The translations under genes and the position numbers were made by a program. The notes beneath the pieces are model-generated. The model searched no databases. It saw only the letters and a list, made by a program, of their open reading frames with translations, and was not told where the DNA came from. From contig CP170648.1 of the NCBI GenBank assembly GCA_042919575.1, positions 2,619,515 through 2,683,514 on the forward strand: DNA of 64,000 nucleotides, given 5' to 3'. Origin of the DNA: Stenomitos frigidus ULC029 (lineage in GTDB: Bacteria > Cyanobacteriota > Cyanobacteriia > Leptolyngbyales > Leptolyngbyaceae). Positions 36,518 to 40,097 of this stretch are shown piece after piece. Every line of letters begins with the position of its first letter. Position 1 is the stretch's first letter.

Positions 36518-38107
36518 ATGAGTATTGGATATCTCGCCCTCGTTCTCCATGCCCACCTACCTTTCGTTCGCCATCCCGAAAGCGACTACGTGCTGGAAGA
36601 AGAGTGGCTCTACGAAGCGATCACAGAAACTTATATTCCGCTCCTGCAAGTTTTTGAGGGGTTAAAGCGAGACGGCGTTGACTTTAAGATCACTATGAGC
36701 ATGACACCGCCACTGGTGTCGATGTTGCTCGATCCGCTGCTGCAAGAACGTTATGACCAGCATCTAGCCCAGCTTGAAGAACTGGCAGAGATGGAAATCG
36801 ATCGCAACGCACACAATGGGCACCTCAAATATTTGGCAGAGTATTACGTCAAAGAGTTTAATCAGGTGCGGCAGATGTGGGAGAAGTACGATCGCAACCT
36901 CATCAAAGCCTTTAACCAGTTTGCCGAGTCCAATAATCTCGAAATCATCACCTGCGGCGCAACTCACGGCTACTTCCCCTTAATGAAGATGTACCCGCAA
37001 GCCGTGTGGGCGCAAATCAAAGTTGCCTGCGAACATTATGAGGAGACGTTTGGACGCGCTCCGAAGGGCATCTGGCTACCCGAATGTGCCTACTATGAAG
37101 GGGTTGAGCGGATGCTAGCGGATGCTGGCTTGCGCTACTTTCTCACCGATGGGCACGGCATTCTCTATGCCCGTCCTCGTCCCCGTTTTGGCACCTATGC
37201 GCCCATCTTTACCCCTACCGGCGTGGCTGCTTTTGGGCGTGATCACGAATCGTCGCAGCAGGTTTGGTCATCAGAGGTGGGCTACCCGGGTGCTAGCGAG
37301 TATCGGGAGTTCTATCGGGATTTGGGCTGGGATGCTGAATATGAGTACATCAAACCCTACGTCATGCCCAACGGACAGCGCAAGAATGTCGGTATTAAAT
37401 ATCACAAAATTACTGGAAAAGGGCTAGGGTTGGGCGACAAGCAACTCTACGATCCCTACTGGGCACGCGAAAAAGCAGCAGAGAATGCGGGCAACTTTGC
37501 CTATAATCGGGAGCGCCAGGTTGAGCATCTTTACGGCATGATGCAGCGCAAACCTATTATCGTCTCGCCGTATGATGCAGAACTCTTTGGACATTGGTGG
37601 TACGAGGGTCCCTGGTTTATTGACTACTTGTTCCGCAAGGCGTGGTTTGACCAGGGCACCTTTGAGATGACGCATCTGGCAGATTACTTGCAAGAAAATC
37701 AAACCCAGCAGGTCTCTAATCCGTCTCAATCAAGCTGGGGCTACAAGGGGTTTCACGAATACTGGCTGAATGAAACCAACGCCTGGATTTATCCCCACCT
37801 GCATAAAGCAACCGAGCGGATGATTGAGCTGGCGAAAAATGAGCCAGAAGATGAATTGGGCTGGCGATCGCTCAACCAGGCAGCACGAGAACTGCTGCTA
37901 GCACAGTCCTCCGACTGGGCATTTATCATGCGTACTGGCACGATGGTGCCCTATGCCGTGCGCCGGACACGATCGCACCTGATGCGCTTTCACAAGCTCT
38001 ACGAGGAGATCAAACAGGGCAAAGTTGATGCGGGTTGGCTGGAGAAGGTAGAAGCGATCGACAACATCTTCCCCAACATCAACTACCGCGTGTATCGTCC
38101 ACTCTAG
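36518..38107 (+). CDS. glycoside hydrolase family 57 1,4-alpha-glucan branching enzyme-like protein
   Basis: N-terminus LVLHAHLPFVRHPE..., a GH57/DUF1957 hallmark. Confidence 0.75.
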   Translation: MSIGYLALVLHAHLPFVRHPESDYVLEEEWLYEAITETYIPLLQVFEGLKRDGVDFKITMSMTPPLVSMLLDPLLQERYDQHLAQLEELAEMEIDRNAHNGHLKYLAEYYVKEFNQVRQMWEKYDRNLIKAFNQFAESNNLEIITCGATHGYFPLMKMYPQAVWAQIKVACEHYEETFGRAPKGIWLPECAYYEGVERMLADAGLRYFLTDGHGILYARPRPRFGTYAPIFTPTGVAAFGRDHESSQQVWSSEVGYPGASEYREFYRDLGWDAEYEYIKPYVMPNGQRKNVGIKYHKITGKGLGLGDKQLYDPYWAREKAAENAGNFAYNRERQVEHLYGMMQRKPIIVSPYDAELFGHWWYEGPWFIDYLFRKAWFDQGTFEMTHLADYLQENQTQQVSNPSQSSWGYKGFHEYWLNETNAWIYPHLHKATERMIELAKNEPEDELGWRSLNQAARELLLAQSSDWAFIMRTGTMVPYAVRRTRSHLMRFHKLYEEIKQGKVDAGWLEKVEAIDNIFPNINYRVYRPL

Positions 38108-38247
38108 AAGAACGTAGGGGCGGATTTGCCAAACCCGCTCCTACTATGGCTTTATCTACGACCTCAGCCGATCGGCTACTTGACGCGCCCTGATCCCTCT
38201 GTTAATTTCAGAGCAGTATTGATTTAAATTCTCGGCGACACAGGCAA

Positions 38248-38304
38248 ATGAGCAGCAGCGTCTTTTACTTTTATGTTTGGTATCCATCGGTTCACCTGGA
38301 GTGA
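38248..38304 (+). CDS. candidate attenuator leader peptide 1: MSSSVFYFYVWYPSVHLE
   Basis: 18 codons. 6 of 7 consecutive codons are Phe/Tyr/Trp. The stop codon lies in the loop of a 13-bp hairpin whose 5' arm (38288-38300) is made of the leader's last codons. Confidence 0.6.
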   Translation: MSSSVFYFYVWYPSVHLE

Positions 38305-38333
38305 CTACCGTTCGAGCTGAACGTGTCCAGGTG

Positions 38334-38367
38334 AACCGCAGAGTCAACTCTGCGGTTTTTTCGTTTT
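38334..38367 (+). terminator. intrinsic terminator T1 (aaccgcagag-tcaa-ctctgcggtt + ttttcgtttt)
   Basis: 10-bp stem, 4-nt loop, U-tract. The 5' arm overlaps by 5 nt the 3' arm of the upstream 13-bp hairpin (38326-38338). Confidence 0.7.
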
Positions 38368-38398
38368 AAGGTGTTGTTAGAAAGAGACAGAAAGAGCA

Positions 38399-38461
38399 AT
38401 GGCAACGTTAATGAGTTGGTTTTACGGCTTTTACTTTTGGACCAGGCACTGTTCCGGGTAA
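38399..38461 (+). CDS. candidate attenuator leader peptide 2: MATLMSWFYGFYFWTRHCSG
   Basis: 20 codons. 7 of 8 consecutive codons are Trp/Phe/Tyr. The last codons plus stop (gttccggg, 38451-38458) can pair with cccggaac (38488-38495) inside the terminator's 5' arm. Confidence 0.65.
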   Translation: MATLMSWFYGFYFWTRHCSG

Positions 38462-38486
38462 AGTCTGTTGCGCCTTCGTTCGTACA

Positions 38487-38520
38487 GCCCGGAACCCAAC
38501 AGGTTTCGGGCTTTTTGTTT
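38487..38520 (+). terminator. intrinsic terminator T2 (gcccggaacc-caaca-ggtttcgggc + tttttgttt), about 35 nt upstream of the DAHP synthase start
   Basis: 10-bp stem (one G-U), 5-nt loop, U-tract. Mutually exclusive with the 8-bp antiterminator 38451-38458/38488-38495. Confidence 0.75.
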
Positions 38521-38554
38521 GCAATCACATCATCAAAATTTAGGAGTAATGCTC

Positions 38555-39418
38555 ATGTTGGATGCCCGGTTAGTCATGAAGTCCCATCCCAACCATCGCA
38601 CCGTTGTCAGCCTTTCTGAACAGGTAGCGATCGGTGGCAGCAATATCATCATTATCGGTGGTCCTTGTACGGTAGAGAGTGCCGAGCAAATGGAGCAAGT
38701 TGCCAGTCAGCTTTCAGTGGCTCCCATCCATGCTCTGCGCGGAGGGGTATACAAACCACGCACCTCCCCGTATGCGTTTCAGGGGATGGGCGTGGACGGG
38801 CTGCGAATTCTGGCAGAGGCACGATCGCGCTACGACATGCCTGTGGTGACAGAGGTGATGTCGATCGCCCAGATTGCTCCTGTTGCTGCCTATGCCGATA
38901 TGCTCCAGATCGGTAGCCGCAATATGCAAAACTTCGAGTTGTTAAAAGCGTTGGGGCAAGCAGGCAAGCCCGTTTTGCTCAAGCGAGGGCTCTCCGCCAC
39001 CATTGAAGAATTCGTGATGGCAGCAGAATACATCATGGCGCATGGTAATCCCAACGTGGTGCTGTGCGAACGCGGCATTCGCAGCTTCGACACTTACACC
39101 CGCAATGTGCTGGATCTAGGCGCAGTGGTTGCACTCCGTCAGTTAACCCATTTACCCGTCATCGTAGACCCTAGCCATGCAGCGGGTAAACGCGAACTTG
39201 TGGCGGATTTAGCACGCGCGGCTGTTGCCTGTGGAGCCGATGGACTGATTATAGAATGTCATCCCGAACCTGAGCAGTCTGTGTCAGATGCACGACAGGC
39301 GCTTTCGTTAAAGTCAATGGTGACTCTGGTGCATAGCCTAGAGCCGATCGCGCGGGCAGTCGGGCGCACCTTGAGCAAAGCCAGCATTGCAGACTCAAAG
39401 CAATTGGTTACGGCTTAA
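38555..39418 (+). CDS. aroG: 3-deoxy-7-phosphoheptulonate (DAHP) synthase, type I-beta, no allosteric domain
   Basis: IIIGGPCTVES...LRGGVYKPRTSPYAFQGMG matches the KDO8PS-like I-beta DAHPS barrel. AGGAG lies 8 nt upstream of the ATG at 38555. The catalytic barrel begins within about 25 aa of the start. Confidence 0.8.
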   Translation: MLDARLVMKSHPNHRTVVSLSEQVAIGGSNIIIIGGPCTVESAEQMEQVASQLSVAPIHALRGGVYKPRTSPYAFQGMGVDGLRILAEARSRYDMPVVTEVMSIAQIAPVAAYADMLQIGSRNMQNFELLKALGQAGKPVLLKRGLSATIEEFVMAAEYIMAHGNPNVVLCERGIRSFDTYTRNVLDLGAVVALRQLTHLPVIVDPSHAAGKRELVADLARAAVACGADGLIIECHPEPEQSVSDARQALSLKSMVTLVHSLEPIARAVGRTLSKASIADSKQLVTA

Positions 39419-39617
39419 TTGGGAGTGCGGCGATCGTGTCTTCAGCAAACAGAATCATTCGTTTTTAGAGCGTTTGTTTGACGACTTCAGGCGCGATCGC
39501 AACCTTCTTCACCACTGACACCGCTGCTTGCTACCAGCTGCCTTGACCTTCGCCTATAGGGGCTAAGAGCCAAAAAGGTGTAGGGTAAGAACAAAACTTT
39601 ATCGCTTTTATCCTCCT

Positions 39618-39989
39618 ATGTATTCTATTCCCGAACCACCCTACGTACTATTGCTGGTTGGGCTCTTTTTTAGCCTGACCTCTGGCGCTGCCTTCGAGTC
39701 AATTTTGAAAAAAGCTGTTCAAGATTGGTCTAAAAATCGTTCAACCCGTACGTTGGCAACCCTGCAAGGCTTTCAACTCTTTTTACCCTTTCTGGGCATT
39801 GCTCTGGGCATTTGTTTGTTCTTGTCGTCTGGGATGGAAGTTTTTGGTTTCACTACTCAACTGTCTTATGCGATCGCACTACCGCTTACCGTTCTTATTG
39901 GCTGGCTCATCTGGTCACAACTGGGCAAAATTCTTTTGCAGCTAGAGCAAGGCGGCTCTCAAGCATTAGACCTTGATTCCTGGGGCTAA
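39618..39989 (+). CDS. hypothetical integral membrane protein (123 aa)
   Basis: Three or four hydrophobic helices. No motif recognised. Confidence 0.4.
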   Translation: MYSIPEPPYVLLLVGLFFSLTSGAAFESILKKAVQDWSKNRSTRTLATLQGFQLFLPFLGIALGICLFLSSGMEVFGFTTQLSYAIALPLTVLIGWLIWSQLGKILLQLEQGGSQALDLDSWG

Positions 39990-40097
39990 CGTTTCAGCCC
40001 CAACAGCATTAAAAAAAGCCTCCTGACTGACGGGTTCAGGAGGCTTTATTTATTTTTAATGCCGCGGTAAAACTAATGAACGAAAAACAGTCGAACC

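Follow-up and report, generated by a model that had tools for sequence, protein, structure and literature searches.

Two tandem aromatic leader peptides as putative ribosome-mediated attenuators of DAHP synthase in cyanobacteria

In the trpL-trpEDCBA and pheL-pheA systems of enterobacteria (Rfam families Trp_leader and Phe_leader), a short open reading frame (ORF) carries a run of codons for the end product of the pathway, and the position of its stop codon makes a ribosome that terminates there cover an antiterminator arm overlapping an intrinsic terminator. The E. coli gene for DAHP synthase (DAHP, 3-deoxy-D-arabino-heptulosonate 7-phosphate) is controlled by the TyrR/TrpR repressors and not by attenuation. 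The closest functional precedent for the element described here is the aroR leader (Phe-Tyr-Phe) in front of the aroF operon of Corynebacterium glutamicum, a mixed-aromatic leader attenuator before a DAHP synthase gene, which according to the summary of Neshat et al. (2014) in PMC11802643 is ribosome-mediated and responds to limitation of Phe and not of Tyr. For cyanobacteria, a survey from 2016 reported no reliable data for attenuation (PMC4833913); an earlier note on the DNA studied here remarked that classical attenuation is seldom documented in these organisms. We analysed a stretch of 64,000 nucleotides (nt) of the Stenomitos frigidus ULC029 genome (contig CP170648.1; "the window"), in which two tandem mini-ORFs rich in Trp, Phe and Tyr codons precede a class I-beta DAHP synthase gene, and compared this locus with its orthologues. 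The comparison with other genomes supports the attenuation reading of the earlier note, whose suggested computational checks all turned out in its favour, and conservation together with modelled folding makes it very probable that the element works as a ribosome-mediated attenuator of DAHP synthase.

The locus would thus represent the classical mechanism in a new sequence family, in a new phylum and in a tandem variant, with two attenuators in series. The leaders of trpL and pheL use the codons of a single amino acid, whereas the cyanobacterial leaders mix Trp, Phe and Tyr, their target is the DAHP synthase of the common pathway, and two complete attenuators follow each other. Compared by description only, aroR is a single attenuator of the Actinobacteria with three aromatic codons and no Trp, while the cyanobacterial leaders have six to eight aromatic codons, including one or two for Trp, and stand in tandem. 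The concept of a mixed aromatic leader before a DAHP synthase gene was therefore already known. The analogy in function with the C. glutamicum leader is clear, and common descent is unlikely, given the distance between the phyla. As to the suggestion that the arrangement is uncommon, no phylum-wide tandem of ribosome-mediated attenuators was found in the searchable literature, and for the mixed leader the Phe/Tyr leader aroR is a precedent. Tandem T-boxes and tandem riboswitches also consist of two terminator-based switches in series, whose output is the product of two read-through decisions. They sense uncharged tRNA or metabolites directly by RNA, whereas the cyanobacterial units would be read by the ribosome.

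Leader ORF 1, which encodes MSSSVFYFYVWYPSVHLE, is located at 38248-38304 of the forward strand, with its aromatic codon run at 38263-38283, and leader ORF 2, which encodes MATLMSWFYGFYFWTRHCSG, at 38399-38461 of the same strand, with the run at 38417-38440. Aromatic residues fill six of seven consecutive positions in leader 1 and seven of eight in leader 2; both ORFs and their runs matched the earlier description exactly when the sequence was read again. In all six frames of the 64-kb window, these two were the only ATG-started mini-ORFs of 8-40 amino acids with at least six aromatic residues in eight positions. Since 0.03 such ORFs per shuffled window were obtained on average in 100 dinucleotide-preserving shuffles, the aromatic density is indeed far beyond chance, as had been proposed.

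One genome per species was scanned with the DAHP synthase, which yielded 80 cyanobacterial loci with 69-92% protein identity from the Nostocales, Oscillatoriales, Leptolyngbya-like lineages and Pleurocapsales/Chroococcales. The genera include Stenomitos (the closest, 92%), Microcoleus, Coleofasciculus, Nostoc, Calothrix, Fischerella, Mastigocoleus, Phormidesmis, Leptolyngbya, Hydrococcus and Lusitaniella, and upstream DNA was present for 78 of the 80 loci. A homologue of leader 1 was found in 76 of these 78 loci (consensus ..S-Y-F-Y-F-W-F-(R/K)-x-V-H-(R/L)-E) and a homologue of leader 2 in at least 71 (consensus ..S-W-F-Y-G-F-Y-F-W-P-R-x-S-S-G); the second count is a lower bound, as several further variants were missed by the regular expression. 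The conservation of Trp/Phe/Tyr mini-ORFs in orthologous leaders, suggested earlier as a check of the attenuation idea, was thus observed for both leaders.

The two leader families are conserved in a characteristic way. Among the 76 leader-1 sequences, 74 start with ATG, the positions -12 to -8 (counted from the stop codon) are 93-99% aromatic, Trp occupies position -8 in 73, and all 76 have GTT at position -4 and a UGA stop. Positions -14 to -7 of leader 2 are 90-97% aromatic, with the exception of Gly/Ser at -11, and its stop codon may be UAA, UAG or UGA, whereas leader 1 has G-UGA without exception (76 of 76 sequences). The distance from the end of the aromatic run to the stop is exactly six codons in both families. 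Changes at the aromatic positions are mostly exchanges between F and Y or synonymous (TAC/TAT); the N-termini are variable, and conservation at the amino-acid level is limited to the aromatic core. Radical variation is seen in the four final residues of leader 1 (H/R; R/L/P/W/Q; E/G/R/Q/A), in contrast to the constraint on the nucleotides there, and these C-terminal residues covary with a non-coding segment downstream, the 3' arm of antiterminator 1 (see below). In the coding part of leader 2, gap runs were 3, 6 or 9 nt long in 277 of 279 cases, and downstream of it gaps of all lengths occurred. Triplet indels, drifting ends and constrained 3' nucleotides are together what one would expect if a regulatory ORF is translated and its 3' end also serves as an RNA arm. 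On average, leader 1 contains 1.2 Trp, 2.6 Phe and 2.4 Tyr and leader 2 contains 1.8 Trp, 3.2 Phe and 2.2 Tyr, and the mixture of all three aromatic amino acids in both leaders fits the control of a single common-pathway enzyme. We also observed that the Phe codons of the leaders are nearly always TTT (e.g., 69 of 76 at one position) and that Tyr is mostly TAT or TAC at fixed positions; such wobble-decoded, U-rich codons might tune stalling or keep the leader region unstructured.

As the peptide cores are conserved, the mini-ORFs could instead be genes of functional aromatic micro-peptides, or the leader RNAs, once terminated, could be trans-acting small RNAs, with attenuation of DAHP synthase being secondary or absent. 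Prematurely terminated leaders can act in trans in other bacteria, as stated in general terms in PMC13613805. Nevertheless, we regard this explanation as highly improbable. It is the aromatic run alone that is conserved, with free N-termini and C-termini that track RNA pairing; the peptides have no Pfam or NCBIfam family match and are annotated nowhere; the module is in every case linked to DAHP synthase, irrespective of its neighbours; and a role in trans would add to attenuation in cis and not replace it. A precursor of a peptide that the ribosome makes and that is modified after translation (RiPP), or a micro-protein, was rejected as a candidate because the leader C-terminus follows RNA pairing.

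The RNA structures were studied in stop-anchored alignments of unit 1 (A1, 76 sequences) and unit 2 (A2, 71 sequences). Antiterminator 1 is an exact 13-bp pairing of 38288-38300, which are the last codons of leader 1, with 38326-38338 (forward strand; isolated free energy -27.2 kcal/mol), exactly the hairpin that had been read from the window before. In the alignment, 87.8% of its cells were paired and six pairs showed compensatory changes, one of them being GC47/UA12/CG11/AU3, and all slid controls remained at or below 46%. There were 43 distinct arm variants, each keeping 9-12 consecutive pairs. The compensatory changes of unit 1 link leader codons with the non-coding 3' arm. As the antiterminator helices include G-U pairs, the pairing is specific to the sense-strand RNA, and an operator-type DNA inverted repeat was rejected for this reason. 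Within the loop of antiterminator 1, an inner hairpin (38309-13/38319-23, forward strand) is visible by eye in most sequences; its alignment is unreliable (54% paired), and we therefore make no claim about it.

Terminator 1 (38333-38367, forward strand) consists of an 11-bp stem (38333-43/38348-58) with a TCAA loop, followed by a T tract, and has an isolated free energy of -17.2 kcal/mol. It was 93.8% paired, with compensatory changes in three pairs. Its hairpin at 38333-38358 shares the positions 38333-38338 with antiterminator 1, so that the overlap of the antiterminator 3' arm with a terminator, which the earlier note had described, was found again. The two helices change consistently with each other: terminator pair 82/113 covaries (AU68, GC5), and where column 82 changes to G, the leader partner stays U (U-A to U-G) and the terminator partner becomes C, a three-way consistency of both structures.

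When RNAalifold was applied unguided to A1, it returned terminator 1 and a candidate local hairpin, GUUCAC/GUGA(AU), at 38291-38307 of the forward strand (A1 columns 34-50). This hairpin joins a part of the antiterminator 5' arm with a segment made of the final base of the last codon, the UGA stop and two further bases. It was 97.8% paired, with half of its pairs invariant and no double-sided change; its median free energy was -4.75 kcal/mol, and the copy in the window, with 4 bp and -2.7 kcal/mol, is weak. Unit 2 showed no hairpin of this kind. The enterobacterial attenuators have a 1:2 pause hairpin, a role that could fall to this small extra hairpin of unit 1, although here the candidate segment '1' is located on the 3' side of segment '2' and includes the stop codon. 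By analogy, the UGA hairpin could thus correspond to the 1:2 pause or anti-antiterminator hairpin of E. coli, in a segment order of 2-1-3-4.

The same hairpin bears on a different way of sensing. TnaC senses free Trp via its nascent chain and blocks Rho. It is similar to the cyanobacterial leaders in being a Trp-containing leader with a UGA stop, at which ribosome occupancy decides on downstream termination. In a TnaC-like scheme, free aromatic amino acids would slow release by release factor 2 at the UGA of leader 1, the ribosome would be held on the antiterminator arm and termination would increase, which is the same sign of regulation as in classical attenuation. The presence of UGA in 76 of 76 and of Trp at position -8 in 73 of 76 leader-1 sequences would be in line with this; nevertheless, we consider nascent-peptide sensing very unlikely. 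The invariance of G-UGA is also explained by the conserved local hairpin that it forms with GUUCAC, the residues that separate Trp from the stop differ radically and track RNA pairing, and leader 2 ends with UAA, UAG or UGA. Furthermore, runs of six to eight cognate codons are a hallmark of the sensing of tRNA charging. Finally, TnaC acts on Rho, whereas the cyanobacterial terminators are intrinsic and the aromatic codons stand in runs as expected for tRNA-charging sensing. Cyanobacteria lack Rho homologues (PMC13613805).

In unit 2, antiterminator 2 is formed by 38451-58 (GTTCCGGG) and 38488-95 (CCCGGAAC) of the forward strand, an exact 8-bp complement whose 5' arm consists of the last codons of leader 2 and ends just before the TAA stop. 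As had been described, this pairing sequesters the 5' arm of a second terminator (38486-38522, forward strand) with an 11-bp stem (38486-96/38502-12) and a T tract. In the 71 sequences, antiterminator 2 was 91.9% paired with compensatory changes in two pairs, and terminator 2 was 89.4% paired with compensatory changes in five. A consensus scan of the forward strand detected terminator-like hairpins with T tracts at 38333-38358 and at 38486-38512, the latter in front of the ribosome-binding site of the DAHP synthase gene, where the second terminator had been placed before. Thus, terminator and antiterminator helices are kept across the orthologues, with compensatory changes in all four of them.

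The behaviour of the switch was modelled by masking the RNA to a point 12 nt past the A site, an assumed ribosome footprint. For unit 1, with a free leader or with a ribosome stalled early on Phe/Tyr codons, the antiterminator formed and the terminator stem was cut to 6 bp, and with a ribosome at the UGA the full 11-bp terminator was present. A stall on the last one or two aromatic codons (Trp/Tyr) already released 9-11 bp of the terminator, so that the early Tyr/Phe codons are predicted to be the effective ones. At equilibrium, unit 2 formed the terminator in every ribosome state. Since antiterminator 2 is no more stable than terminator 2, unit 2 must act kinetically, with the antiterminator forming first. 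The E. coli trp attenuator is similar in this respect, as its 2:3 hairpin is weaker than its 3:4 hairpin. Before the 3' arm of the terminator is made, the antiterminator was part of the minimum free energy structure in 69 of 76 sequences for unit 1 and in 68 of 71 for unit 2, and masking at the stop codon led to terminator formation in 72 of 76 and 61 of 71 sequences, respectively. In both units the antiterminator arm ends 1-3 nt before the stop. The predicted switch, with a stalled ribosome leading to the antiterminator and a ribosome at the stop leading to the terminator, was therefore reproduced by masked folding for early stalls in unit 1 but not for its last one or two codons, and for unit 2 it holds only in the kinetic sense.

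We propose the following sequence of events. The transcript would start at a conserved extended -10 promoter about 30 nt 5' of leader 1, and in each unit the ribosome on the mini-ORF would report how plentiful the charged tRNAs for Trp, Phe and Tyr are. When the supply is good, the ribosome would reach the stop codon and cover the last leader codons, which form the antiterminator 5' arm; the segment complementary to this arm would then pair downstream into the intrinsic terminator, and RNA polymerase would stop. A shortage of any one of the three charged tRNAs would stall the ribosome in the aromatic codon run and leave the 5' arm free, so that the antiterminator could form first and transcription would read through. 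Leader 2 begins about 20-30 nt after the T tract of terminator 1, and unit 2 would therefore be reached only by read-through of unit 1. In Nostocales loci, AAGGAG is found immediately 3' of this T tract. Consequently to the serial layout, the expression of DAHP synthase would be the product of two read-through probabilities, which should make the response sharper and the basal level lower. The anatomy of the sequence, the conservation of ORFs, helices and promoter and the compensatory changes are observed, and the footprints of the ribosome, the kinetics of folding, the coupling of translation and transcription and the physiological response are the parts of this scheme that we infer.

The promoter (38180-38208, forward strand) comprises a -35 element TTGACG (38180-85), a 17-nt spacer, the TG of an extended -10 element (38200-01) and TAATTT (38203-08), and we infer a transcription start near 38214-38217, about 30 nt upstream of leader 1. 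The pattern TTGACN-N17/18-TAnnnT was present within 140 nt 5' of the leader-1 ATG in 71 of 74 loci, in 66 of them with TGn, as opposed to 2.5% of random 140-nt windows from the same loci. The conserved element is the first of the two promoter candidates proposed before, and it lies upstream of leader 1 and not downstream of it. As the promoter is located between the upstream gene and the leaders, the assignment of the terminators to the upstream gene was rejected.

These data also bear on the possibility that the whole arrangement is a chance or annotation artefact, made of unrelated hairpins and spurious ORFs in a long spacer or of the terminators of the upstream gene. A generic promoter scan indeed gave no sigma-70 match at the locus, and the three terminators found in 2 kb were not in excess of the 2.4 expected from shuffles. 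However, only 0.03 mini-ORFs of this kind are expected per shuffled window, more than 70 genomes whose upstream genes differ share this architecture, the helices covary, and leader 1 is separated from the upstream gene by the conserved promoter. The comparative data have effectively refuted this explanation, and its remaining probability is practically negligible.

A switch that is real but set by a trans-acting factor or ligand (a TRAP-like protein, uncharged tRNA as in T-boxes, or a metabolite), with incidental mini-ORFs, has to be weighed as well. Alternative hairpins alone are no proof of ribosome dependence, leader 1 has no obvious Shine-Dalgarno sequence, and antiterminator 2 is thermodynamically marginal. 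These points are outweighed by the conservation of the start, the frame, the stop position and the aromatic codon identity, while other nucleotides and residues drift, and by the indels in threes within the ORF. In addition, there was no T-box, riboswitch or other Rfam match even at E<=1, there were neither (G/U)AG repeat arrays nor a conserved aptamer-like multi-helix structure, and the segment that separates the arms is variable both in its length and in its sequence. We therefore consider control by such a factor quite unlikely and ribosome-mediated attenuation the preferred reading.

Several points nevertheless weigh against ribosome-mediated attenuation in the form proposed here. The lack of a clear Shine-Dalgarno sequence at leader 1 is one of them. 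Coupling of transcription and translation is not known from cyanobacteria. In the window, the isolated antiterminator 2 is less stable than terminator 2 (-16.9 versus -18.5 kcal/mol; the medians across the orthologues are -18.6 and -17.3 kcal/mol, respectively), and with its two covarying pairs, antiterminator 2 would rest mainly on conservation and on the kinetic argument. If no translation takes place, the design is predicted to result in read-through, unlike the superattenuation of E. coli, unless the GUUCAC/GUGAAU hairpin matters. The search with the DAHP synthase protein returned the best 120 matches, all at least 76% identical, with Synechocystis, picocyanobacteria and Gloeobacter beyond its reach. 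Finally, unit 2 occurs alone in a Coleofasciculaceae metagenome-assembled genome (MAG; L050, 2000-2500) and in Phormidium lacuna (L069, 1950-2500), both of which have about 200 nt of unrelated sequence at the position of unit 1. The tandem is therefore not obligatory, and these two loci appear to be natural single-attenuator variants.

Two attenuators in series are the ancestral state across the sampled orders. Units 1 and 2 have in common FYFW, three codons, GTTC(AC)CGGG and the partner CCCG(GT)GAAC, and the alignment of representative units (e.g., L018:2198-2317 with L018:2344-2463) scored about 4.7 standard deviations above shuffles. We tentatively suggest that the tandem arose by an old duplication of one unit. 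When metagenomes were scanned with the leader pattern, which is loose and gave mostly chance matches, about 12 of the matches listed were genuine. Nine of nine genuine hits with assessable downstream DNA among these matches precede a DAHP synthase gene, and this small sample gave no evidence of other regulated genes. One metagenomic locus from a somewhat more distant lineage has both units upstream of DAHP synthase. In a Thermosynechococcaceae MAG, the contig ends 226 nt upstream of the DAHP synthase gene and only terminator 2 is visible.

Several DAHP synthases with 73-92% identity to that of the window are found on contigs or as proteins with other labels (L059, L071 and L078, proteins P0003 and P0012), namely Proteobacteria, Candidatus Obscuribacterales, Candidatus Melainabacteria, Candidatus Sericytochromatia and Verrucomicrobia. 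The cyanobacterial leaders are present as well in those records whose upstream DNA was visible. These are likely mis-binned or mislabelled MAG contigs, and less probably a sign of real presence in non-photosynthetic relatives.

The element proved to be uncatalogued as a sequence family in our Rfam, NCBIfam, Pfam, protein-collection and literature searches. An Rfam search (cmscan, E<=1) of the window positions 37000-40000 gave only a chance match to STnc310 on the opposite strand, and nothing relevant was found in four other cyanobacterial loci at E<=0.1. A weak match to the Mn2+ (yybP-ykoY) riboswitch on the reverse strand of one locus (L062:4305-4392; 20 bits with a gathering threshold of 45, E 0.064) is probably due to chance. 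Six leader peptides had no match in NCBIfam and Pfam at E<=10, and the exact leader peptide sequences were absent from a collection of 15 billion proteins. Neither the element nor the peptide strings were found in the searchable literature on cyanobacterial attenuation, leader peptides and Term-seq, although subscription journals or supplements could describe it. The main text of a 2026 screen of 202 cyanobacterial genomes (PMC12873609) mentions neither DAHP nor aromatic amino acids nor attenuation, and its database could list the hairpins. The supplements of a screen for small RNAs of heterocystous cyanobacteria do not list the element.

The gene behind the two units (38555-39418, forward strand) encodes a class I-beta DAHP synthase, as had been assigned before: its product matches PF00793 (E 7.6e-79) and TIGR01361, the class I-beta model of the B. 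subtilis type (363 bits, cutoff 268). The AGGAG ribosome-binding site reported for it was found at 38542-38546 of the forward strand, 8 nt 5' of the ATG at 38555. The protein covers positions 71-336 of the 338 positions of the profile NF006421 and thus appears to be devoid of the N-terminal regulatory domain of longer class I-beta enzymes. We take this N-terminal extension of the longer DAHP synthases to be the allosteric domain. If so, control of transcription may matter more here and may be a major valve on the flow of carbon to Trp, Phe and Tyr and to the many aromatic-derived metabolites of cyanobacteria.

Upstream of the module lies a GH57 branching-enzyme gene (36518-38107), and downstream of DAHP synthase is a 123-amino-acid ORF (39618-39989) with no Pfam match. 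Between the 3' end of the GH57 gene and the promoter, we noticed an imperfect GC-rich hairpin without a T tract (38116-38142, AGGGGCGG...CCGCTCCT), which may be the 3' end structure of the upstream GH57 transcript. Neither neighbour stands beside DAHP synthase in the other loci, with the exception of GH57 in one of them (L006), and the synteny around the module is not kept even in the 92%-identical Stenomitos locus. The flanking genes differ among the genomes, so that the promoter and both leaders keep company with DAHP synthase and form a self-contained module together with it.

A broader interpretation goes beyond the locus itself. It would see here an ancient, hitherto undescribed, phylum-wide two-stage attenuator that is the main expression control of the entry into the shikimate pathway in cyanobacteria, with a lead ribosome functionally coupled to RNA polymerase in a phylum that has no Rho and was believed to have no classical attenuation, the UGA hairpin as a timing (pause/release) device and, maybe, a duplication of the unit. 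We put this forward as a possibility with somewhat less than even chances. If the attenuation proposed here is true, it would be the first well-supported case of classical leader-peptide attenuation in cyanobacteria. Since a ribosome-dependent attenuator needs a lead ribosome that paces RNA polymerase, the element would then be a natural reporter of transcription-translation coupling in a phylum without Rho, and its tandem layout would offer a natural test of whether serial attenuators sharpen a response. The removal of both terminators would be an obvious engineering target for aromatic production strains.

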